Source: Chthoniobacterales bacterium
GTDB taxonomy: Bacteria > Verrucomicrobiota > Verrucomicrobiia > Chthoniobacterales > UBA10450
Direction: 5' to 3'
DNA length: 64,000 bases
NCBI GenBank assembly: GCA_035948375.1
Contig: DASZJH010000092.1
Location: 4,557-68,556, forward strand
The notes under the pieces: model-generated
The model's input: only the letters and a program-made list of their open reading frames with translations
Databases searched by the model: none
What the model was told of the DNA's origin: nothing
Position numbers and translations under genes: made by a program
Part shown: positions 6,217 through 62,937 of the stretch, piece after piece
How positions within the stretch are numbered: position 1 is the stretch's first letter
Layout of the letters: every line of letters begins with the position of its first letter

Positions 6217-7901
6217 GCGATTTTGCTCTGCACGATCTGATCGATCTTTTTGAACTGGGCTTCGGAATCCGCCTGAACCTTTCGAAGCTTCTCGTGCAGC
6301 GCTGTCTTGAACTTCTCGTCCTTCAATTGGCCGAGGTTGATTCGAACATTCAACGCCGCGCCATCGACGCAGGCCCGTGTTGCCAGCGCGCCGACGCCAA
6401 CGTCGGAAACGGACGCCGGGTTTCCCTTCTCCGCCATTTCCGCCAGCAGTTCGTAAGATTTCGCGGCGGTCTCCATCACTTTGAGCGGAATCTCCGCCGC
6501 GTACTTAGTCGCGGATTCGACTGCCGCGGCTCGCGCCTTTTTTTCTTCCTCGGATCCTTTCGGTAGTCCAAACGCGTCCATTACTTTGTTGAAAGCGTTC
6601 GTGTCTTCGTCGACCAGCGCAAGCAATTCATCTTTCAGCTTCTGCGCTTTCACCGCCCAATCGCTGAAATATTGAAGTTTATCGTCCCAGCCGCGTTTGC
6701 CGGCGGAAAGATTCGCGACCATGCCGCCGAGCGACGCACCGAGCGCGCCCATCAACGCCGCGACCGACCCGCCCCCGGGCGCGGGCGAATCGCTCAAAGT
6801 CTCATTGCAAAATTCGCGCAGATTCATTGTCACCGGCGATTTCGAATCGCTTTCGATCTTCAATTCAATCACTTTTTCTTTCGGATCGAAAGGTTTCAGC
6901 TCGCTCAATCCCATCGACCGGACGGCGATGTCGATCAATTCTTCCTCCGACGCGCCTTCCGACCACTTTTGCTTTCGCAAAAAGTAACGGCCAGCATCGG
7001 TCAGGCATTTCTTCGGAACCATGCCAACGATTTCCGAGCCAGTGACACGAAGACCGCGTTGGATTGCCGACTCAACGCAGGCATCAAACGCGACGTGCAG
7101 CGGTGTTTCGTCGATGTCGGTGAGGTTCATCGACACTTGGGCGATCCCGTACTCTTTCACGAACCAACCGATCGCCTTGACGTGTTTCAACATCCCGGGA
7201 ATGCGAACTGGTTCTCCCTTTTCATCCAGAACCTTTTTGCCCGAAGGCGTTCCATCTTCGGTTTTGAATCGCCCCTGCTCGCGAACGTCGAACGCAATCG
7301 AGTTCGCGCGCCGGACTGATTTCGTGTTCAGGTTTACGTTGTAAGCGACGAGAAATTCTCGCGCACCGATCGCCGTCGCGCCGGCTTTCTCGTTGAATTT
7401 CGCCGGCCCAAAATCCGGTTTCCATTCCGGCTTCTTGATTTTTTCGGCAAAGCCTTCGTATTCGCCGGCGCGGACCACCGCAAGATTGCTTCTCGATTTC
7501 TCCTTCGCCGCCTTTTCGTAGAGATAAACAGGGATTCCCAATTCGTCGCCGACGCGCTTTCCCAACTTCTTCGCGCACTCGATTGCTTCTTCCCAAGTGA
7601 CGCCGCTCACCGGGATGAACGGACAAACATCGGTCGCGCCCATACGCGGATGCGCACCTTTATGTTTGCGCATGTCGATTAATTCCGCCGCTTTCTTGAT
7701 CCCGCGAAACGCTGCTTCGATCGCCGCGTCCGGAGTTCCGACCAACGTGACAACAGTGCGGTTGGTGGTCGCACCAGGATCGACATCAAGCAACGAGACG
7801 CCGTCAGTCGATTTAATCGCGTCCGTTATTTGCCGGATTATGTTTTCGTCGCGCCCTTCCGAAAAATTCGGCACACACTCGATCAGCTCTTGCATGCTCA
7901 A
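6213..7901 (-). CDS. ftcD: Bifunctional glutamate formimidoyltransferase / formimidoyltetrahydrofolate cyclodeaminase (FTCD-like fusion)
   Basis: 562-aa ORF. The N-terminus has the formiminotransferase signature [10 protein letters not shown]. The C-terminal ~200 aa is a helical cyclodeaminase-type domain ([28 protein letters not shown]). It overlaps hutU and hutI by 4 nt each. Confidence 0.88.
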
Positions 7902-50592: not shown

Positions 50593-50787
50593 ATGCCAGA
50601 AGTACTCGTTCGCAAAGGTGAGCCAGTCGATCGCGCCTTGAAGCGCCTGAAGAACAAGCTCGACGCCGAGGGTATTCTCGAGGAAGTGCGCCGCCTGCGC
50701 GCTTTTGAGACCCCTTCGCAAAAATACCGCCGCAAGATGAAGGCAAACGCCAAGCGCGGTCGCACGAAGTTTCGTTTCAATCCGTAA
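50593..50787 (+). CDS. rpsU: 30S ribosomal protein S21
   Basis: 64-aa ORF: MPEVLVRKGEPVDRALKRLKNKLDAEGILEEVRRLRAFETPSQKYRRKMK. GGAG lies 11 nt upstream. Confidence 0.95.
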   Translation: MPEVLVRKGEPVDRALKRLKNKLDAEGILEEVRRLRAFETPSQKYRRKMKANAKRGRTKFRFNP

Positions 50788-50814
50788 GATCGACAATTAG
50801 CATTTGTTGATACA

Positions 50815-50843
50815 GGGGACACGCTACGGCGTGTCCTTTTTGT
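50815..50843 (+). terminator. Rho-independent terminator of rpsU
   Basis: GGACACGC (50817-50824), loop tacg, GCGTGTCC (50829-50836), followed by TTTTT (50837-50841). Confidence 0.8.
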
Positions 50844-50853
50844 TTCCAAACAC

Positions 50854-52455
50854 CTAATCGCATTCGCACACGATCCGGAATCCGAGATCGTTACAGGAAA
50901 AGTTGGGAGCGTTGGAGCTTCTGACCGTTGTCCGTAAACTGCTGAAGCGCGATTTCCAACTCCCGCCGCGGTGAACTCGCTTGGCGCCGATGGTCGGCCC
51001 GCGCGGGTTCACTTTTGGTCCCGGTCGATACGGTTCGTAATAATCCAGGCACCATTCCCAGATGTTGCCGGCCATGTCCTCGATTCCAAATGGACTGGCT
51101 CCAAGCGGGAACGCCCCAACCGGCGACGTTTCGGCGTAGCCGCAATCGATCTCATGATCGCTCCAGGCGAAAACGGTGTTCTTGTCGGCGAAGTTTGCCA
51201 GATCCCCGCGGCCATCCTGATTTCCCCAAGGAAATTTTCGGTTGTCGGTGCCTTTGGCGGCGTATTCCCATTCCGCTTCGGTTGGCAGGCGATACTTGCG
51301 ACGTTCGCGGGTACTAAGCCAGTTGCAAAACTTGGTCGCGTCCAGGCTGCTCACGTAAATAACAGGATGCCGATCGCCAGCGCCTGGCGCGCGTTTGCTG
51401 ACATGGGCGCGGTCGAACTGCTCGTACTCCGCGTTCGTGATTAAATAACGTGCAATATAAAAACGCGTGACAGTGACATGCGACGTCGGGTGTTCGTTCG
51501 GCGCGGCGTCGTCGGCTTCGCTGCCCATCGTAAATTCCGCCGACGGAACAAAGATCATCATTGCTCCGAGTGAGTTAGTGAAGTTGCTGTAACGCGAACG
51601 TTCCAGATCAGCGTTGTGTTCGAATTTTGCCGGCAACGGTTTCTCCTGAACCGGCGGCTGGGCCGCCGCCGTCTTGATCTCGATCTTCGGAGCCGCCGGC
51701 TTTGGCAGCGCGGCCATGGCTTTCTCGTCGGCTTCCTCGAGGTAAAGATCGACAAGATCCTCGGCTTCGCCCGGATCGAGGCCGAGGTTCTCGGCCATGT
51801 CGATGAAGGTGTCGCGCTGGTCGTCACTCATGCTCATGCTGTCGAGATTGCTCAGACGCAGCATGCGCAAGAATTCTTCCTGAGGATTTGAGGTCGCCGG
51901 TGTTGCGGAAAGCTCCGACAAGTGCGTCGTCGGCGACGCAACTACCGCGCGTTGAGCGCCTGTTTCATGCAATGCGTCCTCGATCAACGAAGTAACCTGC
52001 GCTTCGCTAAGGGCGCGATCGATTCCAAAGCGGATGAGATTTTTCTCCTCGTCAACGCTAAGGACACCGCCGGCCAGCGCAAATTCGAGATACTTTCGAA
52101 ATTCGGCTACCGCAGCATCGTGTTGTTGGGCAGCCAATTGCTCATCAACAAATTTGCGCCGTTCGGGGTCGAGAAGTTCCAGCCGCGCTTCGGTTAGATA
52201 CCGGGACGATTCCTCCAAGCCCACCCACAGCATCTGCGCCAGTGGATTGCTCGGTTGATTTTTGAGCGGCAGTTTTTTTTGCCACCAACGCATCAATTCG
52301 CGGCAATGCTCTTCGATCAGCTCATTGCTCGGATTGGCATAGGGATCGAGGCAGAGCCGATCATAAAAATTCGCTGATCGGTAGTTATTCCAGCCTTGCC
52401 ACTTTCGCGGGTCATCTGGGAGCGGAAGCGGAAAGGAAATATCGCACTTGCTCAT
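50854..52455 (-). CDS. J-like domain (no HPD), tandem helical repeats and a C-terminal FGE-sulfatase (C-type-lectin fold) domain lacking the catalytic cysteines
   Basis: 533-aa ORF. aa 28-107 are J-domain-like (NFYDRLCLDPYANPSNELIEEHCRELMRWWQKK...LLDPERRKFVDEQL). aa ~292-533 carry RLPTEAEWEYAAKG, GNIWEWCLD, RGGSW and LGFRIV. It starts 3 nt downstream of the Hsp70 gene. Confidence 0.85.
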   Translation of the reverse strand: MSKCDISFPLPLPDDPRKWQGWNNYRSANFYDRLCLDPYANPSNELIEEHCRELMRWWQKKLPLKNQPSNPLAQMLWVGLEESSRYLTEARLELLDPERRKFVDEQLAAQQHDAAVAEFRKYLEFALAGGVLSVDEEKNLIRFGIDRALSEAQVTSLIEDALHETGAQRAVVASPTTHLSELSATPATSNPQEEFLRMLRLSNLDSMSMSDDQRDTFIDMAENLGLDPGEAEDLVDLYLEEADEKAMAALPKPAAPKIEIKTAAAQPPVQEKPLPAKFEHNADLERSRYSNFTNSLGAMMIFVPSAEFTMGSEADDAAPNEHPTSHVTVTRFYIARYLITNAEYEQFDRAHVSKRAPGAGDRHPVIYVSSLDATKFCNWLSTRERRKYRLPTEAEWEYAAKGTDNRKFPWGNQDGRGDLANFADKNTVFAWSDHEIDCGYAETSPVGAFPLGASPFGIEDMAGNIWEWCLDYYEPYRPGPKVNPRGPTIGAKRVHRGGSWKSRFSSLRTTVRSSNAPNFSCNDLGFRIVCECD

Positions 52456-52458
52456 CGC

Positions 52459-54021
52459 CTAGGTGACGTGGAGTTCGTCCAACCCAGACGTGGCTTTATC
52501 GATATCTTTTGGATCCAGACCGGTGTTGCGGTCTATTGTCACCTGGGCGCTGTTGCCGGCGGCTTCTACCTGTACTTCCAACACCTGGTTGGCGTTATAT
52601 TGATAAGTCAATTGGACCGGAGAGCCCTTCGGCAAATATGGAGGCAGCTTAATGTCACAAACTCCCAGCGGAGTACATTCCGCGGGCACAGTGCTCTCAC
52701 CTTCCACAACTTTGACGATGGCGTGCTGCATGTTTGCGTCGGCTGTGCCAAACGAATTCTTCAACGTCGCCGGAATTGGCGTCATCTTGCGAATCATCGG
52801 GAACACGTATTCATTAAGGTGCTTTTCGTCCCAAAGCACGACGCCCAGCGTGTGCGAGGTGATGTCGGTAACTTCGATCAATCCACCATCAAGCCCCGAA
52901 AATCGTCGACGGACATCCGCGTCTACGACCCGCGCGCCGGATACGTTTTCCTCGGCCAAGATTGACAAAATGCCCTGAATCGCGGCGCCGCGTGCCACCA
53001 CTTCGTCAGGATTCAATTGATCGACCAGTGGCACGGAAGCAAAATTCGACATCATCGCGCGGATCATCGGCATTCGTGTCATGCCGCCGGCCAGAAGCAC
53101 CTTGTCGATCTTGTCCCATTTCAATTTCGCTTCCTGCATCACCATTTCGCAGATGGTTTTGCATTTCTCGACCAGGTGACGCGTTCGCTTCTCAAAATCC
53201 TTGCGCGTCAACGTCAACTTCACGCTCTTGCCGCCGTGGTGGTAAACGATGGTTGTGCTGTTGCGACTGGAGAGCTGGATCTTGGCCGACAGGGCGCGAT
53301 TGTGCAGATCCTGATAGCTGTGCAAATCTAGCAACGGATTCTCGCCGTGAAGGTGATCAAATTCCTCCGCGATCAGATTTACAATTACATCGTCCCAATC
53401 TTTTCCGCCCAACCGATGATCGCCGTTGGTCGCCACCATCTCGATCTTGTGATCGATGATGCGCATGATCGTGACGTCGAACGTGCCGCCGCCGAGATCG
53501 AAAACAAATACGGTCTGGTTTTCATCGAGCTTATCCAGGCCATAAGCCAGTGCTGCGGCCGTGGGCTCGTTGATAATTTGAAGAACATTCAGCCCGGCCA
53601 ATTGACCGGCAGTAATCGTGGCGGTGCGTTCGGCGTCGTTGAAGTAGGCCGGCACCGTGATGACGGCGTCCGTCACCTTCTGATCGAGATATTTTTCCGC
53701 GTCGGCCTTTAGCTTCCTGATGATCAGTGCCGAAAGCTCTTCGGCTGAATAAACCTTGCCGTTAAATTCGCGGTGAAATTGGTCTTTCGGTTTGCCGATT
53801 TCGCGCTTCACAAAATCGACAATCTTCTCCGGCTCGGCGACCGCATTGTTCTTGGCCACGGTGCCGACGATTACGTTACTGCCATCGAAGAAAATCACTG
53901 ACGGAGTGATCCGTTCGGTTTCTGAGTTGGGAATGATTTGCGGTTTGCCGTAACTATCAATGTGGGCAATGGCGGAAAAGGTCGTGCCGAGATCAAGTCC
54001 AACTACTTTGCGTGCACTCAT
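52459..54021 (-). CDS. Hsp70-family ATPase paralogue (HscC-like, lacking the C-terminal helical lid)
   Basis: 520-aa ORF with motifs DLGTTFS, VITVPAYFNDAER, INEPTAAALAYG, VFDLGGGTFDV and LAGGMTRMP. It ends shortly after a beta-sandwich region. Confidence 0.93.
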   Translation of the reverse strand: MSARKVVGLDLGTTFSAIAHIDSYGKPQIIPNSETERITPSVIFFDGSNVIVGTVAKNNAVAEPEKIVDFVKREIGKPKDQFHREFNGKVYSAEELSALIIRKLKADAEKYLDQKVTDAVITVPAYFNDAERTATITAGQLAGLNVLQIINEPTAAALAYGLDKLDENQTVFVFDLGGGTFDVTIMRIIDHKIEMVATNGDHRLGGKDWDDVIVNLIAEEFDHLHGENPLLDLHSYQDLHNRALSAKIQLSSRNSTTIVYHHGGKSVKLTLTRKDFEKRTRHLVEKCKTICEMVMQEAKLKWDKIDKVLLAGGMTRMPMIRAMMSNFASVPLVDQLNPDEVVARGAAIQGILSILAEENVSGARVVDADVRRRFSGLDGGLIEVTDITSHTLGVVLWDEKHLNEYVFPMIRKMTPIPATLKNSFGTADANMQHAIVKVVEGESTVPAECTPLGVCDIKLPPYLPKGSPVQLTYQYNANQVLEVQVEAAGNSAQVTIDRNTGLDPKDIDKATSGLDELHVT

Positions 54022-54148
54022 GAGTCGAAAAAAATCGCGTGGATCCTGTGGGATTGAATTCTGCGGGGTTGGTAGTGCAGTTTTCGTGCCTCAGAGGAGG
54101 CGGAATTTTCGTAAACTCCGCAAGTAGACCGACAAGCGCCGGACCGCC

Positions 54149-54844
54149 TCAGCCGAAGCGTTTTGCGATGACTTCCTCAGGGCGGATCAGTTTGCCGCGC
54201 CAGATGAACCCGCGTTTCACCCGCATTACGATTGTGCCGTCTTCTTCGGGGAAGTCTGCCGGTTCGTAGCTCAGTACGCGATGGTAGGCGCGATCAACCC
54301 GTTCCCGCGCCTCGATCTCTCGTACATCGAAGCGATGCAGGATTTCGACCAGCGAATGGATGGCGTTCTCCAGATTGTCGCGCCACTGTGAGACGCGGCT
54401 GCGCTTTCCTTTTTCTTGTGCCGCACTCGAGAGCTGTTCGCACAACCCGTTCAGATGGTCGTAGAGATAAACGAGATCGTGAATGAACGGTTTCTGGAGC
54501 GATTCGTGCAGAAAATTGTCGCGATACTTGCGCAGCTCGGAATGCAGCGAATCGAACAATTGCTGATTGACGCTCTCAGTGTTGCGAATCAAAGACAGTT
54601 GTTCGTCGATCTTGCGTAGTTGCTTTTCAAGGGCGGTCGCGTGTGAGGTTTCCATGGCCGCTGCAAACGCTTCGAATCTGCCGAGCAAATTTTTCTCCAG
54701 CGTCCGGAGCTGTTCCGCCACCGGCTCCGCAGACTGGTCGTCCCCCACAATCATTGGGGACGTGGGCAACGTTTTCTCAGCCTCAGCGCTCAGCTGCTGC
54801 ATCGCGGCCGTAAAATCTTCTTCGACTTTAATGGCTTTACTCAC
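54149..54844 (-). CDS. GrpE-like nucleotide exchange factor
   Basis: 231-aa ORF with a GTG start in a GTGA overlap with the cobA/hemD stop. Its helical part (LHSELRKYRDNFLHE...LVYLYDHLNGL) and beta-domain (RFDVREIEARERVDRAYHRVLSYEP...GTIVMRVKRGFIWRGKLIRPEEVIAKR) are colinear with GrpE. Confidence 0.8.
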   Translation of the reverse strand: MSKAIKVEEDFTAAMQQLSAEAEKTLPTSPMIVGDDQSAEPVAEQLRTLEKNLLGRFEAFAAAMETSHATALEKQLRKIDEQLSLIRNTESVNQQLFDSLHSELRKYRDNFLHESLQKPFIHDLVYLYDHLNGLCEQLSSAAQEKGKRSRVSQWRDNLENAIHSLVEILHRFDVREIEARERVDRAYHRVLSYEPADFPEEDGTIVMRVKRGFIWRGKLIRPEEVIAKRFG

Positions 54845-56370
54845 GGCGCTTTCTCAGCTGCGAAAAATTTTCGGATCGCTTCAACCAAGCCTTCGATGTC
54901 GTGGCGCCGCGCTTCGATGTCGATCTTCAGCCCACGGTCGCGCGCAGTTTTGGATGTAATTGGCCCAATGCTCGCCACTCGAATTCCTTTTGGCCAGGCC
55001 AGGCCCAGCGCGAGAAAATTTTCCACCGTGGAAGAGCTGGTGAAGGTGATCAAATCCGCCCCCTCTTCCAAAAAACGGCGACGCGCGCCAGTAATGTCGC
55101 GCGTTTCCGGAACAGTTCGATACGCAGATGCTTCATCGACAATGGCCCCCAGCTTGGACAATTCCCTCGGTAGCACGTCCCGCGCCTTTTCCGCCCGCGC
55201 TATCAGGATTCGCAAATTTTCCACGCCTCCCTGCTTTCGAAATTCGCCCACCACAGCCTCTGCCACGAATTCATCCGGCTGAACATCGACATGCAGATGA
55301 AAATCTCGCACGCGCTGCGCAGTCGCCGGCCCGATTGCGGCGATCTTTGCCGCGCCAATCTCGCGCGCGTCGTCGTAAAGCTTGAAGAACATCTCGAAGA
55401 AGGCGTCGACGCCGTTTGGACTCGTGAACACGATCCAGTCGTAGGTGTGCGCGTCCTGAACCAGCTCGCCGAATTCGCGCAAGTCGGTTGGCGGGTCGAT
55501 TCGAATCGTTGGTAATTCGATAACATCCGCGCCGAGCACGCGAAGCTGACTGGTCAGCGCGCCAGCCTGCTTTCGGGTTCGCGTAACCACGATTCGTTTC
55601 CCCGACAGCGGCCGCTGCTCGTACCAATTTAAGTGTTTGCGCAGCCCGACCACATCTCCGAACACGGCGACGGCCGGCGCCTCGAATTCCGCTTCAATCG
55701 CGCGCCTAGCAATGTTTTCCAAAGTTCCCGTCAACGTTTGTTGGCGACCGGTCGTTGCCCAACGTACCAGCGCCACCGGCAGATCAGGTCGCACTCCCTT
55801 CCCCATCATCTCGCGCGTAATCGACTCAAGTCTCTCAACGCCCATCATCATCACTTGCGTCCCGCCCAACTTCGCCAGCGCCGAATAATCAATCGCGCTC
55901 TCTAATTTAGAAGGATCCTCATGGCCGGTGAAAAATGTGACGTGGGAATTTTCGGCGCGATGAGTCACCGGAATTCCGGCATAAGCAGGTCCGGCGATCG
56001 CCGACGTGATTCCTGGAACAATCTCGAAGGCAATTCCCGCATCGACAATCGCCTTGGCCTCCTCAGCGCCCCTACCGAAAACGAACGGGTCCCCGCCTTT
56101 CAATCGGACGACTTCTTTTCCCGCGCGCGCCTTTTCGGTGAGCAGTTTGTTGATTTCATCCTGACTCAGCGCGTGCTCGCCCGCTTTTTTCCCGGCATAA
56201 ATAATTTCCGCGGCGTCGCGCGCCCACCCCAGCATCTCCGGATTCGCGAGATGATCGTAAACAATGACGTCTGCGTGCTCCATGCACTCCTTTGCCCGCA
56301 ACGTGACCAGTCCAAGATCGCCCGGGCCAGCGCCTACTAAGTAAACTCTTCCACTCTTAGTCGTACTCAT
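54841..56370 (-). CDS. cobA/hemD: Fused uroporphyrinogen-III C-methyltransferase / uroporphyrinogen-III synthase
   Basis: 509-aa ORF. The N-terminal half has the SUMT signature VYLVGAGPGDLGLVTLRA...VRLKGGDPFVFGRG. The C-terminal half is HemD-like (GKRIVVTRTRKQAGALTSQL...). Confidence 0.92.
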   Translation of the reverse strand: MSTTKSGRVYLVGAGPGDLGLVTLRAKECMEHADVIVYDHLANPEMLGWARDAAEIIYAGKKAGEHALSQDEINKLLTEKARAGKEVVRLKGGDPFVFGRGAEEAKAIVDAGIAFEIVPGITSAIAGPAYAGIPVTHRAENSHVTFFTGHEDPSKLESAIDYSALAKLGGTQVMMMGVERLESITREMMGKGVRPDLPVALVRWATTGRQQTLTGTLENIARRAIEAEFEAPAVAVFGDVVGLRKHLNWYEQRPLSGKRIVVTRTRKQAGALTSQLRVLGADVIELPTIRIDPPTDLREFGELVQDAHTYDWIVFTSPNGVDAFFEMFFKLYDDAREIGAAKIAAIGPATAQRVRDFHLHVDVQPDEFVAEAVVGEFRKQGGVENLRILIARAEKARDVLPRELSKLGAIVDEASAYRTVPETRDITGARRRFLEEGADLITFTSSSTVENFLALGLAWPKGIRVASIGPITSKTARDRGLKIDIEARRHDIEGLVEAIRKFFAAEKAP

Positions 56371-57311
56371 GCTCTTACTCGGATTTGCTCGAGTACCTGT
56401 GCAGCCAATTTCTCCGCATCCTCGCTTGGCCCGTTAACGAAAGCCTGCCGCGGCGCGGTTGCTCCCGGATCAAAGATTTGCCCATGGATTTTCATTGTCG
56501 ATCCTTCGATCGTTGCCAAGACCCCGACGGGTTGATTGCAATCAGCGTCTACCAACCGCAAGAACTCGCGTTCTGCTCGCAAGCTCAGCCGCGTGTCGAA
56601 ATCGTTGATCGGCTCGAGCATTTCTCGGAGTTGTTGATTGTCGGAGCGAATTTGCATTGCCACAACGCCTTGCCCGCCCGCGGGCACGAAAATTTCAGGC
56701 GAAAGAAGTGTCGTGAAAAATTCATTGTTCTCGAACTCGATTCGCCGGCGTTCGGCTTTCAGCCCGAGCCGTTGCAAACCGGCGTTAGCCAGGATAATCG
56801 CGTGCCAACGATCAGTCGCCAGCTTGCGCAAACGAGTCGGCACGTTGCCCCGAAGATCGACAATCTCCAGGTCCGGCCGTTTCCAGCGGAGCTGATGTTG
56901 TCGCCGAACACTTCCCGTCGCGACGATTCCGTCTTTAGGTAGCGATTCCAGATCGCTCTGCGTTGTCGCCACCAATACATCATCGACCACTGCCCGCGGC
57001 AGGACAGCTGCGATTTCGGTGCGCGGCGACAATCTGCTCGGCAGGTCTTTCGCGCTATGCACCGCCAGATCGATCTGCTTTTCAACCAGACTGCGCTCAA
57101 TTGAGTCGGTAAATAATCCCTTCCGGCCGGCCCTAACATCAACAATCGCCGTTTTTTCGTCGTCACCGCGCGTCTTAATGATTTCGATCTCGAACTTCAA
57201 ATCGGCCCACCGTGCCTGCAACGCATCAACCACCAGGCCGGTCTGCCGCAGCGCAAGCTCGCTTCCGCGCGTGCCAACTACGATTTTGATCCGGTGTGGA
57301 CGCTTCACCAC
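56367..57311 (-). CDS. hemC: Hydroxymethylbilane synthase (porphobilinogen deaminase)
   Basis: 314-aa ORF: IKIVVGTRGSELALRQT...IKTRGD...HSAKDLP...RGNV.TRL.KL. Confidence 0.95.
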   Translation of the reverse strand: MVKRPHRIKIVVGTRGSELALRQTGLVVDALQARWADLKFEIEIIKTRGDDEKTAIVDVRAGRKGLFTDSIERSLVEKQIDLAVHSAKDLPSRLSPRTEIAAVLPRAVVDDVLVATTQSDLESLPKDGIVATGSVRRQHQLRWKRPDLEIVDLRGNVPTRLRKLATDRWHAIILANAGLQRLGLKAERRRIEFENNEFFTTLLSPEIFVPAGGQGVVAMQIRSDNQQLREMLEPINDFDTRLSLRAEREFLRLVDADCNQPVGVLATIEGSTMKIHGQIFDPGATAPRQAFVNGPSEDAEKLAAQVLEQIRVRA

Positions 57312-57353
57312 GTTCCTGTAGCGGCGGTCTATGACCGCCGCAAACGCGGCCGC

Positions 57354-58424
57354 CTACAACTCCGACGCGCGCAGTGATCCGTCTCCGACTGCTGGATGTT
57401 CGGCCGTTCCTTTCGCCCGATTCAGGCCGCCCGCCATCGATTGTTCGAACTCGCCGACGTGCTGGGCAATGATCTCTTCCGCCGCGGCGATTTGTTCGCG
57501 CCGCATGGCCAACGATTGTTCGGCGATCGATTGCAACGAATCGATATCGTAAAGATAAACGCCCGCCAGATCATTCACTCCGATGTCGACGTTGCGCGGC
57601 ACGGCGATGTCGACGATGAAGAGCGGCCGATCGATCCGATCACGCAGTGTTGGCGCAAGCTTCTCCCGCGAAAGCAACGGCACTTCGGAGGATGTCGATG
57701 TAATCAGAATATCGATCTCGCGGCATTCGTTAGGCCAGGTTTCAAACGGAACGGCACGAGCCGCAGTCAATTGTGCAAGACTCTCAGCGCGTTCGCCGGA
57801 ACGATTACTCACGCGCAGATCGGCCACGCCGCGGGAAACCAATGCGCGCGCCGTCCTTTCGCTCGTTTCCCCGGCGCCAAGCACGAGCACTTTGCAGTTC
57901 CGAAGGTCGCCAAAAATCTTCTGAGCAAGATCGACCGCGACCGACCCGACCGACACCGCACCGCGGGTAATGTCAGTGTGCGTCCGAACTTGTTTGGCCA
58001 CACGAAAAGCGCGTTGAAACAGTCGGTGCAGGTGCGAACCAGCCGCGCCTGATGAGCTCGCCGCTTCATAAGCCTTTTTTGCCTGACCGAGAATTTCCGT
58101 TTCACCAACAACCATCGAATCGATTCCACACGTCACACGAAACAGATGACGAACACATTGCGCGTCTTCATATCGATAGAACGGGGCCGATTCGCGCGAA
58201 GCGTGGATGTCGATCTTCCGATCGAGACAGCGCGCAATGTCCAATGTCGAAACGCGTGATTCCGATGCGCCGTAGACTTCAACCCGATTACATGTCGCCA
58301 ATAGCAGCGCTTCAGCGCAACCAGACTTTCGCAACAGGGAATCGATCTCGGCGTTGCCGCCAAAACGTTCCAATGTCGCGACATCCGCTGTGTGATAGCT
58401 CACGCCGACACAAAAAAGATTCAT
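57354..58424 (-). CDS. hemA: Glutamyl-tRNA reductase (short form, 356 aa)
   Basis: ATG at 58424 (ATGA overlap with the upstream stop) gives MNLFCVGVSYHTADVATLERF. The catalytic Cys lies in LLATCNRVEVY and the NADPH motif is VLVLGAGETSE. Confidence 0.93.
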   Translation of the reverse strand: MNLFCVGVSYHTADVATLERFGGNAEIDSLLRKSGCAEALLLATCNRVEVYGASESRVSTLDIARCLDRKIDIHASRESAPFYRYEDAQCVRHLFRVTCGIDSMVVGETEILGQAKKAYEAASSSGAAGSHLHRLFQRAFRVAKQVRTHTDITRGAVSVGSVAVDLAQKIFGDLRNCKVLVLGAGETSERTARALVSRGVADLRVSNRSGERAESLAQLTAARAVPFETWPNECREIDILITSTSSEVPLLSREKLAPTLRDRIDRPLFIVDIAVPRNVDIGVNDLAGVYLYDIDSLQSIAEQSLAMRREQIAAAEEIIAQHVGEFEQSMAGGLNRAKGTAEHPAVGDGSLRASEL

Positions 58425-59212
58425 GGCGTGTGCGTTTGGGCCGTGAACGTAATTCCCCACAAGAGTGTCAAGGCCGCGCTAAAGCCGACGATGCAAAGTG
58501 CCGCCACACGTTTTGGGGCAAACCAGCGCAGATAGCGGCCCTGCAAAATCAGCGCATACAAGATCCAGACGCCGATTGCGCAGATGATTTGCGGCCACGG
58601 CAATGGCTCGCCCACAAAAAATCCGCTGATTAATCCGAGCGTATAAAGAACGAAACCCCACCACAGAAGTCGCGTGATCGCCGCGAAAAGGTCGGTCAGC
58701 GGCGGCAAATGAAAAAAGATCGAGTGGAGATGGTGAGTCTTGAGCTGACGCTCTTGGACGAGATACATCACGCCGGCGATGCCGGACAACGCGAAAGCCC
58801 CGTAAGCGACCAGCGACATAGACGCATGAAATTCCAGCCACGAATTCGCCGGCAACTTCGGCCGATGTGGATGATCGATCGGCGCGATTAGCGCAAAAAT
58901 TTGGAGTAAGGCAACGACCGGCGCGGTGAATGCGCCCATGAGCGACAGCCGATACGCCGGACCCACTACGATGTAGAAAAGCGCCACCGACCACGCGACG
59001 AAAATGATGACTTCAAACAAATTTGTGATCGGGCAGCGGCCGAGTTCGCGTCCACGGATCGACAGAAACGCGGTTTGAAGAATGAAGCCGAGACCGACCG
59101 CAAAAAAATTGAACCGCATCGGCCGAAAGATGCCGCCACGGATCTGGACAACAGTGTGCGCAATCGCCGCCAGAAAACAGACAGTTGAAGCAATGAGAAG
59201 ATATCGATCCAC
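58421..59212 (-). CDS. Cytochrome c assembly (CcsA/HemX-like) integral membrane protein
   Basis: 263-aa ORF with about 8 TM helices. Its position directly upstream of hemA recalls B. subtilis hemX. Confidence 0.75.
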   Translation of the reverse strand: MDRYLLIASTVCFLAAIAHTVVQIRGGIFRPMRFNFFAVGLGFILQTAFLSIRGRELGRCPITNLFEVIIFVAWSVALFYIVVGPAYRLSLMGAFTAPVVALLQIFALIAPIDHPHRPKLPANSWLEFHASMSLVAYGAFALSGIAGVMYLVQERQLKTHHLHSIFFHLPPLTDLFAAITRLLWWGFVLYTLGLISGFFVGEPLPWPQIICAIGVWILYALILQGRYLRWFAPKRVAALCIVGFSAALTLLWGITFTAQTHTP

Positions 59213-61565: not shown

Positions 61566-61753
61566 TGCGCAACATTTTCGAGCTGACCAAGCGCGAACAA
61601 CGCATCGTCATTGTGATCGTTGCGGCCTTGGTCTTGTTCGCATTGGCAAAACACTTGTGGCAAACCAAGCCGCAACCGGTTCCGGCCGCAACGACATCGA
61701 CAACATCACAGACTCCGCCGCCCCAAAAAGAAGAGACTGAGTCGGATGATTAG
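61565..61753 (+). CDS. Small single-pass membrane protein
   Basis: The ATG overlaps the queC stop (TGATG). The product MRNIFELTKREQRIVIVIVAALVLFALAKHLW has one TM helix, then a P/T/Q-rich acidic tail. Confidence 0.5.
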   Translation: MRNIFELTKREQRIVIVIVAALVLFALAKHLWQTKPQPVPAATTSTTSQTPPPQKEETESDD

Positions 61754-62937
61754 GGATGACTTTGTTTCGAGGACAAATCTGGAATGCGTCCGTAACCTAC
61801 AAACACCGCCGTGGTTTCTTTACCCGGTTTCGATGATGCCCGACCGACTTTGAAATCGAACACGCTCACTCCGGATTTTGTTTGTCCTTTGAATGTGCCG
61901 CGCTCGCTCGCGCCCATCATCAACCGCGCGTTCGTCGTTTTATCGCGACCGATGTAAATCATTGTTTGCACTATCTCCGGATCGCGACTGACTCCAAAGT
62001 TGCTCGCCCAAAAGAGAAGATCGCCCGGCTGTAATTCGTCCAATTCGAAAGTGTCGTCGCGCTGAGCCAGAACAGCTTTGAAGTTTCCCGATTTGCGAAC
62101 CCAAGCGTATTGCTCGCGCGCATCGCGCGGCGCATCCGTTATTCCGGATTGAGTCAGCACATAATGAATGAAGCCTGAACAATCCATCCCGCCCTTCGCA
62201 GGATCCGTCGATGCATATTTATAAGTGAGATGGCGCGCGCCTAGGTAAAGTCCAAAATCGACAATCTTCCGAATTTGCGCTGGATAACTCGGAGACTCGG
62301 CGATCTGGTCCGTTGCGATAACCGGTTTGAGTTCTTCCATCTTCTTTGCGACCGGCGTGGCGGTCGATTTCGGCGTCGCGGACGGTGTTGGAGTTTTGGA
62401 CGACAATGGCGAAGCTGTAACCATCGGCGGCAAACTCGGCACCGGTCTCGTCGTCTCTTCCGGCGTTACAGTGATTTCGGGAATCGCCGTTCCACTCGGC
62501 ACCGGCGGCGTTGGCGTTTCTCTGATTGCTTTGGAACCACCGCGCGATCGGGAGCGCGGACCCGGACTGATTGCACGCACCGGCTCGAAGTAATGAGGTT
62601 GAACGTCTTCGCGTCGAGTTGGCGCCTGAGTCGGAGCAGTCGCCGCAGCGGCTGCTGACGACGCTTCCCTCGGCGATGGCGCAACCGACGCGACCGGAGT
62701 TTCAGTTGGCGAAGTCGACGGCGTTTCGCTCGGCGATTTAGTCGACTTTGGCGAACTCGTCGGCGCCGCAGTCGGTTTCTTTTTCTTGCGAGGCTTCGGA
62801 GTAGGCGTCGGATGAGAAAAGAGGCCCTTTAACCTATCGTAAAGACTTTCATCTTGTTCCTGCGTTGCACGCGTGACCGAGACGCCCATCGCGACCGCGA
62901 TCGCAACTACTAAAAGGAAACGCAGGTTTCTCCTCAC
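61750..62937 (-). CDS. NlpC/P60 (C40) cell-wall peptidase with a long P/T/S-rich N-terminal region
   Basis: 395-aa ORF with a signal anchor and ~200 aa of P/T/S/A low complexity. The C40 domain has catalytic Cys in GGMDCSGFIHYV and a later MIYIG region. Confidence 0.88.
   Translation of the reverse strand: MRRNLRFLLVVAIAVAMGVSVTRATQEQDESLYDRLKGLFSHPTPTPKPRKKKKPTAAPTSSPKSTKSPSETPSTSPTETPVASVAPSPREASSAAAAATAPTQAPTRREDVQPHYFEPVRAISPGPRSRSRGGSKAIRETPTPPVPSGTAIPEITVTPEETTRPVPSLPPMVTASPLSSKTPTPSATPKSTATPVAKKMEELKPVIATDQIAESPSYPAQIRKIVDFGLYLGARHLTYKYASTDPAKGGMDCSGFIHYVLTQSGITDAPRDAREQYAWVRKSGNFKAVLAQRDDTFELDELQPGDLLFWASNFGVSRDPEIVQTMIYIGRDKTTNARLMMGASERGTFKGQTKSGVSVFDFKVGRASSKPGKETTAVFVGYGRIPDLSSKQSHP

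Follow-up and report, generated by a model that had tools for sequence, protein, structure and literature searches.

A likely dedicated Hsp70 system in Chthoniobacterales, built from a lid-less Hsp70, a GrpE paralogue and a J-domain-related adaptor without HPD

Three consecutive minus-strand genes in a 64,000-nucleotide stretch of DNA from a Chthoniobacterales bacterium (contig DASZJH010000092.1, positions 4,557 to 68,556; the whole of this stretch is referred to here as the window) encode a GrpE-family protein, an Hsp70 that lacks the helical lid, and an adaptor protein that carries a J-domain homologue at its N-terminus and a domain of the FGE-sulfatase family (FGE, formylglycine-generating enzyme) at its C-terminus. 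We consider it likely that this locus is a dedicated, non-housekeeping Hsp70 system and a member of a conserved family. The GrpE-family protein, the lid-less Hsp70 and the adaptor co-occur in a fixed order, both in Chthoniobacterales and in unrelated bacteria.

The module runs from the GrpE-like gene (54149..54844, 231 amino acids (aa)) through the Hsp70 gene (52459..54021, 520 aa) to the adaptor gene (50854..52455, 533 aa), all on the minus strand. The adaptor ATG stands 3 nt past the Hsp70 stop codon (TAG gcg ATG), while the GrpE-like and Hsp70 genes are separated by a 127-nt spacer (54022-54148) that holds a sigma-54-type promoter element. Because hundreds of full-length homologues exist for the three proteins, the three open reading frames (ORFs) are real genes and not chance ORFs. 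The first-pass annotation had placed them at the same coordinates, strand and lengths, with the same 3-nt gap, and had described a GrpE-like exchange factor, an Hsp70 paralogue with intact ATPase motifs and a β-sandwich domain but no lid, and a third protein with a J-like N-terminus, two tandem helical repeats, a proline/alanine-rich (P/A) linker and an FGE-sulfatase domain. These assignments are borne out by the profile and structure comparisons that follow.

The lid-less Hsp70

The Hsp70 matches the Pfam HSP70 family (PF00012) with an E-value of 2.4e-122 and a score of 409.6 bits (cut-off 20.6), over profile positions 1-511 of 599. Since the match stops at position 511, the helical lid is missing. 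The protein is divided into a nucleotide-binding domain (NBD; aa 1-350, 52972-54021), a clade-specific insertion (aa 351-380, 52882-52971), an altered linker, LIEVTDITSHTLG (aa 381-393, 52843-52881), the β-sandwich part of the substrate-binding domain (SBD-β; aa 394-495, 52537-52842) and a short tail that replaces the lid (aa 496-520), and thus ends about 25 aa past SBD-β. Following the 30-aa insertion, the linker reads GLIEVTDITSHTLG, not DVLLLD. The ATPase motifs are intact and include DLGTT, KREIG, NEPTAAALAYG and DLGGGTFD. Alignment with Escherichia coli DnaK places a Gln at the position of R167 and a Phe at that of N13 (DLGTTF for DLGTTN), and the GrpE-signature loop is deleted.

In comparison with models of the known Hsp70 types, the window Hsp70 reaches 417.5 bits against the DnaK equivalog TIGR02350 (cut-off 822.55) and 422.8 bits against PRK00290 (cut-off 648), below the threshold in both cases, and 326.8 bits against the HscA model (cut-off 708.55). 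The closest solved structures are bacterial DnaKs (Mycobacterium tuberculosis, PDB 4rtf, E 7e-92), and pipelines of the Joint Genome Institute (JGI) name orthologs of the protein “molecular chaperone DnaK”. Identity is 41-50% to the Hsp70s of the distant systems described below, 37% to E. coli DnaK, 31% to HscA and 30.5% to HscC. The window Hsp70 and those of the distant systems have several derived traits in common, namely the missing lid, the altered linker, the N13F replacement and an insertion of 10-30 aa before the linker; an insertion in loop L1,2 and the deletion of the GrpE-signature loop are further traits of the clade, and the equivalent of DnaK R167 is replaced in most of its members.

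A reciprocal search was made with the Hsp70 of locus L086, which belongs to the system of an unrelated organism, against 5.8 billion proteins. After the small clade of the L086 protein itself, the next best matches were the Verrucomicrobial 520-aa proteins, and the best 120 matches were all 510-550 aa long and carried no NCBI name other than “Hsp70 family protein”. This search settles clade membership, and on sequence comparison the lid-less Hsp70s are a clade of their own, apart from DnaK, HscA and HscC.

The GrpE-like protein

The product of the first gene matches the Pfam GrpE family (PF01025) with an E-value of 9.5e-14 and 51.8 bits (cut-off 25.8), over profile positions 9-162 of 165. The match covers aa 65-226 (54167-54652), the protein aligns colinearly with E. 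coli GrpE, and its C-terminal motif is RGFIWRGKLIRPEEV. While the single sequence gave no match in a phmmer search of the Protein Data Bank (PDB), a profile built from its orthologs matched the solved GrpE structures 4ani (E 2e-6) and 3a6m (E 6e-6), and also GRPEL1. Against the NCBIfam GrpE equivalogs the score is 13-31 bits (best 31.3), with cut-offs of 137-231. By these profile comparisons, the protein is a nucleotide-exchange-factor paralogue of the GrpE family and not a housekeeping GrpE.

The adaptor protein

The adaptor opens with the motif PLPDDPRKWxGW (aa 9-22), followed by the J-domain homologue (aa ~27-105, 52141-52377), two probably TerB-like helical units (aa ~110-170, 51946-52128, and aa ~190-250, 51706-51888), a P/A-rich linker (aa 251-290) and a non-catalytic FGE-sulfatase domain with a C-type-lectin-like fold (aa 299-529, 50869-51561). 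No hydrophobic, transmembrane segment is found in the window adaptor. The J-like part is missed by Pfam, as the DnaJ family (PF00226) has no match in the window adaptor, and its assignment comes from other comparisons. The first 265 aa matched 164 clusters among 1.84 billion representative proteins, and a profile of 14 diverse N-terminal modules (N-modules) matched about 30 J-domain chains in the PDB across J-domain residues 3-70 (best E 9e-5). Aligned with E. coli J-domains by hhalign, the J-like domain gave a probability of 72% and an E-value of 3e-5. An AlphaFold2 (AF2) model of aa 1-250 had a predicted local distance difference test score (pLDDT) of 86.8, and the only high-probability Foldseek matches to it were J-domains, with a target template-modelling score (TM) of 0.63-0.74 and E-values that were not significant. 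These matches include 6rzy_A (probability 0.98, target TM 0.74) and the J-domain of E. coli DnaJ (5nro_B, target TM 0.68), taken from the DnaK complex 5nro. Pfam DnaJ does score above its cut-off in related adaptors, at the N-terminus in L112 and in a second domain after the N-module in P0228, P0270 and L096. The window adaptor has WWQKK at the position of the HPD motif, and W57 is invariant across the adaptor family. Judged by these profiles and the predicted structure, the N-terminus of the adaptor is a J-domain homologue without HPD.

The two helical repeats are probably TerB-like. A profile of the repeats matches the TerB structure 2ou3 across both halves (E 4.9e-4), and Pfam TerB (PF05099) is the commonest match of individual units, a weak one found in 3 of 18 units with a best E-value of 0.057; the Foldseek search with the model of aa 1-250 returned no TerB match.

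The C-terminal domain matches FGE-sulfatase (PF03781) with an E-value of 1.6e-49 and 169.3 bits (cut-off 23.3), and both Foldseek and phmmer relate it to FGE, PvdO, ToxD and PorK. In an AF2 model of the full-length adaptor the C-terminal half was poorly predicted (pLDDT 62), and a fold search with it gave FGE relatives only. Alignment to human FGE (E 2e-31) shows that C336 is replaced by Ser and that C341 falls in a 3-residue deletion. Because both copper-binding cysteines are missing, the domain is read as a binding module, not an enzyme, and a catalytic FGE was rejected as a candidate on the same ground. No other part of the adaptor is as well conserved across related loci as this domain, which is not hypervariable.

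Conservation and linkage in Verrucomicrobiota

The first-pass annotation had called the module private. Scanning the J-like N-module against one genome per GTDB species showed instead that at least 348 species encode a relative of it, and that the module belongs to a conserved family. The best 80 of these are all from Verrucomicrobiota, and most are labelled Chthoniobacterales; the linkage counts given here refer to these 80 loci. The Hsp70 gene lies directly upstream of the adaptor gene in 79 of the 80 loci, and the contig of the remaining one starts at the adaptor gene. The gap between the two genes was 0-11 nt in the 55 loci where it was measured. A GrpE-like gene preceded by a hem cluster is found upstream in 67 of the 80. 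In two loci (L025 and L038, one of them labelled Chthoniobacterales), the Hsp70-adaptor pair sits beside secDF, and upstream of about position 6436 unrelated genes take the place of the GrpE-like gene and the hem cluster.

Median identity to the window proteins is 76.6% for the Hsp70, 66.1% for the adaptor and 60.7% for the GrpE-like protein, compared with 69.1% for HemA and 62.4% for HemC. Synteny is kept throughout the order in the stretch from the hem operon to rpsU/secDF. No match to the N-module was found in 72,556 plasmids and 50,697 phage records, and PHROGs returned nothing specific for the module proteins. PADLOC-DB v2 gave weak partial matches only, with PDC-S48 on the helical repeats at E 9e-6 and the rest at E ≥0.008. 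The module is most likely inherited vertically, as part of a syntenic core region that evolves at a housekeeping rate.

Distant relatives of the module

As synteny within one order proves little, more distant relatives of the module were examined. Adaptors with 24-34% N-module identity occur in loci that keep the order GrpE-like protein, lid-less Hsp70, adaptor, in different surroundings. Four such loci were anchored on the adaptor (L085, L086, L087 and L089), and L085 was reached through a protein search with a distant J-like profile, which matched two proteins. Their surroundings comprise gcvPHT (L085), rhomboid, TPR and NACHT genes (L086), and zinc-ribbon and TPR genes (L089), while in L087 a gene for an Hsp70-vWA fusion stands between the Hsp70 and adaptor genes. 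A metagenome scan anchored on the GrpE-like protein gave 21 loci, in which a lid-less Hsp70 of 507-542 aa lies directly downstream wherever the contig is long enough; the J-like adaptor comes next in all 8 of the loci that have at least 1 kb more sequence. The same order of GrpE-like, Hsp70 and adaptor genes was seen in four loci anchored on the Hsp70 (L116-L119), and in L112 the trio sits among lysS, dus, folP and holB. The linkage of the three genes, which the first-pass annotation had proposed to check in related genomes, is thus found both in the order of the window and in distant lineages.

In the distant adaptors, 3-5 predicted transmembrane helices separate the J-like part from the C-terminal domain, which is SH3b, PEGA, RodZ_C, LamG, TPR or FGE. 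Because other domains hold the FGE position in related systems, the C-terminal domain appears to be a swappable binding module and not a fixed enzyme.

Several distant loci contain further genes. A second Hsp70 paralogue (678-682 aa), with a vWA domain in place of the helical lid, adjoins the GrpE-like/Hsp70 pair at L086 3743-5779, L087 1994-4039, L118 102-2147 and L119 2734-4782; none is present in the lineage of the window. In the subgroup with LamG adaptors, a pair of same-strand genes lies upstream of the trio (L089 1479-3777; L099 3069-5349; L106 3388-5684) and encodes a 253-aa protein, with a zinc-ribbon match in L089 and L099 and none in L106, and a protein of about 500 aa with a double zinc ribbon and TPR; these may be additional components in that subgroup. 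A gene for a TPR-CHAT protein (CHAT being a caspase-like protease) lies directly 3′ of the adaptor gene in L116 (11619-14234), and a NERD-NACHT gene about 4.5 kb downstream in L086 (15123-18482). These CHAT and NACHT neighbours are conflict-system-like and are confined to some of the distant loci. One exception to the linkage is L090 (8001-10871), where the gene for a 956-aa relative of the LamG-type adaptor (P0275) stands without a recognisable Hsp70 or GrpE gene as neighbour, and two unannotated overlapping ORFs of about 190 aa lie upstream of it. This locus may be a degraded or rearranged copy.

A conserved sigma-54-type element upstream of the Hsp70 gene

When the spacer between the GrpE-like and Hsp70 genes was aligned across 24 orthologous loci, it contained a single conserved block, GGCA-G-AA--TGCAC, which corresponds to the GG-N10-GC pattern of a sigma-54-type -24/-12 element. 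In the window this block reads GGCACGAAAACTGCA and lies at 54076..54090 on the minus strand, 55-70 nt 5′ of the Hsp70 ATG. The exact element is found 57-74 nt 5′ of the Hsp70 ATG in 64 of 69 loci, and the other five carry one-base variants of it at the same place. Only one other match to the element occurs in 1.06 Mb, and the window has one match where 0.01 are expected. The element is also kept in L025 and L038, in which the GrpE-like and hem genes are absent upstream. A scan for sigma-70 promoters gave no convincing candidate for the module. We infer from this conserved motif that the Hsp70 and adaptor genes form a bicistron that would depend on sigma-54 and an enhancer-binding protein. With a separate conserved promoter element in front of these two genes, the link to the hem operon is confined to the GrpE-like gene.

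Genomic context in the window

The hem operon lies upstream on the same strand (54841..59212, minus strand), as labelled by Pfam on the identical contigs L001 and L002. It comprises a hemX-like gene (Cytochrom_C_asm family; 58421-59212), hemA (57354-58460), hemC (56367-57311) and a cobA/hemD fusion (54841-56370), all on the minus strand. The HemX-like membrane protein gene precedes hemA, the ORFs overlap or abut throughout, and the cobA-hemD product (509 aa) is a fused uroporphyrinogen methyltransferase/synthase. The stop codon of cobA/hemD is overlapped by the GTG start of the GrpE-like gene (GTGA), a start that is probably real because the peptide after it is conserved in orthologs. From this arrangement, the GrpE-like gene appears to be appended to the hem operon and translationally coupled to it.

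At the other end of the module, rpsU (50594-50788, plus strand, 64 aa) converges on the adaptor gene, and the 65-nt gap between them contains a G+C-rich hairpin with an 11-bp stem (50814..50839, assigned to neither strand). This hairpin is likely a terminator at the 3′ end of the module and may be shared by rpsU and the adaptor gene; a run of T follows it 3′ on the plus strand only, and minus-strand termination is therefore a deduction. No Rfam family was matched between 50.4 and 59.6 kb, and no canonical dnaK, dnaJ or grpE was found in the 64-kb window.

Beyond rpsU, the identity of SecDF to the window copy (L005-L084) is bimodal, at 79-94% in a handful of loci and about 50-60% in most, with one at 71%. 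As neighbouring genes vary smoothly, this suggests replacement of, or recombination at, secDF. Upstream of the hem operon, a 395-aa protein (61750-62937, minus strand) has a long, low-complexity N-terminal half rich in Ser, Thr and Pro, and its C-terminus corresponds to an NlpC/P60 gene called on contig L001.

Relation to known Hsp70 systems

Like the DnaK-DnaJ-GrpE system, the module combines an Hsp70 ATPase and SBD-β, with conserved ATPase motifs, with an exchange factor of the GrpE fold and a partner derived from a J-domain. Unlike E. coli DnaK, its Hsp70 has no lid, a replacement for DVLLLD, the N13F and R167Q changes and a deleted GrpE-signature loop. The adaptor differs from DnaJ by having no HPD, glycine/phenylalanine-rich region, Zn-finger or C-terminal client-binding domains. 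While the DnaK system is driven by heat-shock promoters, the module would be under sigma-54-type regulation. Three types of prokaryotic Hsp70 have been distinguished, DnaK, HscA and HscC, of which the specialised ones dispensed with an exchange factor (Mayer, 2021, PMC8215388). A 2026 review refers to DnaK derivatives as “dark matter”, notes lid-less forms in Myxococcus without assigning a function to them, and reports that, in 130 genomes, derivatives were always accompanied by a bona fide DnaK (PMC13580251).

HscC with the membrane-anchored DjlB/DjlC, the “third” Hsp70 system of E. coli, offers a close comparison, as a specialised Hsp70 that is encoded beside its own atypical co-chaperone in place of DnaJ. 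HscC and the module Hsp70 both have the insertion in SBD-β loop L1,2, the deletion of the GrpE-signature loop and a deletion of NBD residues 76-101 (PMC8215388), and the distant adaptors of the module are membrane proteins as are DjlB and DjlC. The differences are that HscC is 550-580 aa long with a shortened lid, whereas the module Hsp70 has 520 aa and none; that HscC is less similar to the module Hsp70 than DnaK is; and that HscC is believed to work without an exchange factor (PMC8215388), while the module has a GrpE paralogue next to its Hsp70. At the motif position, E. coli DjlB has HPE and the module adaptors have a WWQKK-type sequence. Membership in the HscC type was rejected on the identity values (30.5%, as against 37% to DnaK), the absent lid and the adjacent GrpE paralogue. 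An HscA-type system was likewise set aside, given the hem and rpsU/secDF neighbours where HscA has an isc operon with HscB, the 31% identity and the lack of an N-terminal extension.

The adaptor also resembles DjlA, of the TerB-DnaJ class, in pairing a J-type domain with what are probably TerB-type units and in having relatives that are membrane proteins. DjlA itself is anchored in the membrane. In the adaptor, unlike DjlA, the J-like domain comes first and lacks HPD, the TerB assignment is tentative and there is an extra C-terminal binding domain; the partner of DjlA is DnaK, whereas the adaptor has an Hsp70 of its own. A census of J-domain proteins lists TerB-DnaJ as one of twelve architecture classes (PMC10410713).

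Non-housekeeping Hsp70s with their own GrpE and a J-domain fusion have also been described in conflict systems with GAP1-N2 GTPases (Kaur, 2020, PMC7159879), a subset of which have Hsp70s without a peptide-binding domain (PMC7159879). Those systems centre on the GTPases and on proteins with fibronectin type III (FNIII) repeats and occur in actinobacteria and firmicutes, while the J partner of the module has no HPD and other domains. None of the loci that have gene calls includes a GTPase gene, and none has a gene for an FNIII protein beside the trio. A further precedent is MxDnaK2 of Myxococcus xanthus (MXAN_6671), a DnaK paralogue that acts in S-motility and sporulation and has two exchange factors; the locus number of one of them, MXAN_6672, suggests that its gene is adjacent (PMC11019930). 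MxDnaK2, unlike the module Hsp70, is a full-length protein of the PRK00290 type with a lid and 62% identity to E. coli DnaK, and, unlike the module, it uses HPD-bearing J-proteins that it shares with MxDnaK1. Literature on Hsp70 together with FGE-sulfatase, GrpE, vWA or Verrucomicrobia yielded no account of the trio.

A precedent for loss of the motif comes from mitochondria and differs in one respect, as the module encodes no HPD-bearing partner. Pam16/Tim16 has the fold of a J-domain, has lost HPD and is still part of an Hsp70 machine, where it acts paired with the HPD-bearing Pam18.

Proposed mechanism and alternative explanations

In the mechanism we propose, sigma-54 and an enhancer-binding protein would relay a signal that switches on the Hsp70 and the adaptor. 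The FGE-like domain of the adaptor would bind one defined ligand or class of clients, and the J-derived domain would mediate docking on the Hsp70 by way of a co-diverged interface independent of HPD, with HPD lost on one side and R167 and the linker altered on the other. Being lid-less, the Hsp70 may bind and release clients quickly or hold large or folded ones, and its ADP state would be reset by the private GrpE paralogue. The distant adaptors are predicted membrane proteins whose C-terminal domains are of types that bind the envelope or glycans (SH3b, PEGA, RodZ_C, LamG, FGE). From this, the ancestral adaptor probably anchored Hsp70 activity at the membrane or envelope, or directed it there, as DjlA does for DnaK and DjlB/DjlC for HscC, and the Chthoniobacterales adaptor would have become soluble.

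A number of observations weigh against reading the locus as a working dedicated system. The HPD motif is absent from every J-like domain of the adaptor family. In canonical J-domains HPD, which lies between helices II and III, is essential for stimulation of the Hsp70 ATPase. R167, the DnaK residue in contact with the HPD aspartate, is Gln in the window Hsp70 and differs among members of the clade. Like HscA and HscC, neither of which uses GrpE, the window Hsp70 has also lost the GrpE-signature loop (PMC8215388). With no HPD, an altered R167 and a deleted GrpE-signature loop, neither co-chaperone interaction is assured. In L025 and L038, moreover, the Hsp70 and adaptor genes are kept without an adjacent GrpE-like gene. 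The promoter is a conserved motif match and not a mapped transcription start, and signatures of an enhancer-binding protein (GAFTGA, ESELFG) were not found in the window. The “full Hsp70 cycle” of the first-pass annotation accordingly stands as far as the three component families are concerned, while the cycle itself is deduced from them.

Of the other explanations, a diverged housekeeping DnaK-GrpE-DnaJ set of the source organism is very improbable. It would account for the DnaK structures among the closest matches, the JGI labels and the lack of another dnaK in the 64-kb window, but the scores fall far below the DnaK and GrpE equivalog cut-offs, the lid, the DVLLLD linker, HPD and the Zn-finger and C-terminal domains of DnaJ are all missing, NCBI gives the orthologs no name beyond “Hsp70 family protein”, and DnaK derivatives were never found without a bona fide DnaK in the 130 genomes reviewed (PMC13580251). 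The non-housekeeping character of the module, already proposed in the first-pass annotation, is upheld by the Hsp70 scores, the absent lid, the altered linker and the uniform length of the best 120 reciprocal matches. Equally remote is a role in sulfatase maturation, in which an FGE coupled to the Hsp70 would keep nascent sulfatases unfolded for conversion of cysteine to formylglycine. Among solved structures, the C-terminal domain indeed matches formylglycine-generating enzymes best (E 2e-31), the substrates of FGE are sulfatase peptides in an unfolded state, and sulfatases are abundant in Verrucomicrobia. The replacement of C336 by Ser and the deletion of C341 largely refute this idea, however, and SH3b, PEGA, LamG, RodZ_C or TPR occupies the same position in related systems.

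Two proposals are harder to set aside, though both are improbable. An anti-phage or conflict system, with the FGE-like domain sensing an invader and the Hsp70/GrpE pair acting as an NTP-dependent thresholding switch like that proposed for MoxR-vWA and GTPase-Hsp70 systems, strikes us as unlikely. Predicted conflict systems use FGE-sulfatase (“FGS”) domains as sensors or as variable binders (PMC7159879; PMC8195603), genes for Hsp70, GrpE and a DnaJ fusion accompany the GAP1-N2 GTPases (Kaur, 2020, PMC7159879), the TerB-like repeats weakly match the PADLOC candidate PDC-S48, and Hsp70-vWA (L086, L087, L118, L119), TPR-CHAT (L116) and a nearby NERD-NACHT (L086) are found in distant loci. The lineage of the window, however, has no effector, vWA or GTPase, none of the three proteins has a convincing match to a PADLOC model, and the N-module is unmatched among plasmids and phages. 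In the related species sampled the module occupies a syntenic core region, flanked by the hem operon and rpsU/secDF, and evolves at housekeeping rates under purifying selection, with the FGE domain as the most conserved part of the adaptor, and the distant locus L112 lies among lysS, dus, folP and holB. The conflict role that the first-pass annotation had offered as a speculation is thus disfavoured for this lineage. We regard as very unlikely that the module is an accessory of tetrapyrrole (heme or siroheme) synthesis at the tail of the hem operon, as a chaperone for a hem enzyme such as glutamyl-tRNA reductase or in cofactor delivery. The GrpE-like start overlaps the cobA/hemD stop, no terminator-like site separates the hem genes from the GrpE-like gene on the coding strand, and the order hemX-hemA-hemC-cobA/hemD-GrpE-like-Hsp70-adaptor is shared by about 65 genomes of Verrucomicrobiota and also by L117, which is more distant. 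Conserved gene order within a single taxonomic order is nevertheless a weak indication of function, the Hsp70 and adaptor genes are under their own conserved promoter element, L025 and L038 keep both genes and the sigma-54 element away from hem genes, and the trios of other lineages adjoin gcvPHT, zinc-ribbon/TPR, lysS/dus/folP or genes for type IX secretion system (T9SS) cargo, never hem.

The reading of the locus as a dedicated Hsp70 system can be extended to a bolder proposal, which we put forward tentatively and rate as doubtful. The family would form a fourth, phylogenetically dispersed class of prokaryotic Hsp70, in which an HPD-less adaptor couples a ligand cue to a lid-less Hsp70 with a private GrpE, and the Hsp70 would be a signal-transducing or thresholding NTPase and not a folding chaperone. 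In the ancestral state the J-domain-derived adaptor would have crossed the membrane several times and carried an ectodomain that binds the envelope or glycans; in some lineages the Hsp70 would be coupled to vWA-fused Hsp70 paralogues and to CHAT or NACHT partners, and the system would be induced through sigma-54 in Chthoniobacterales.

Significance

In relation to known forms of Hsp70, exchange factor and J-type partner, the module stands apart by its lid-less Hsp70 clade, its private GrpE, its HPD-less adaptor with interchangeable binding domains and, in this lineage, its sigma-54-type promoter. It is a counter-example among specialised Hsp70s, as a lid-less one that retains a co-evolving GrpE paralogue, and it contains a relative of the J-domain without HPD, a motif thought to be indispensable. 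The swappable C-terminal domains of the adaptors point to how specificity is set. The sigma-54 element provides a regulatory handle and the system is small enough to reconstitute, which would allow a direct test of Hsp70 function in the absence of both the lid and HPD. The identity of its client would reveal a lineage-wide process in the abundant Verrucomicrobia of soil.

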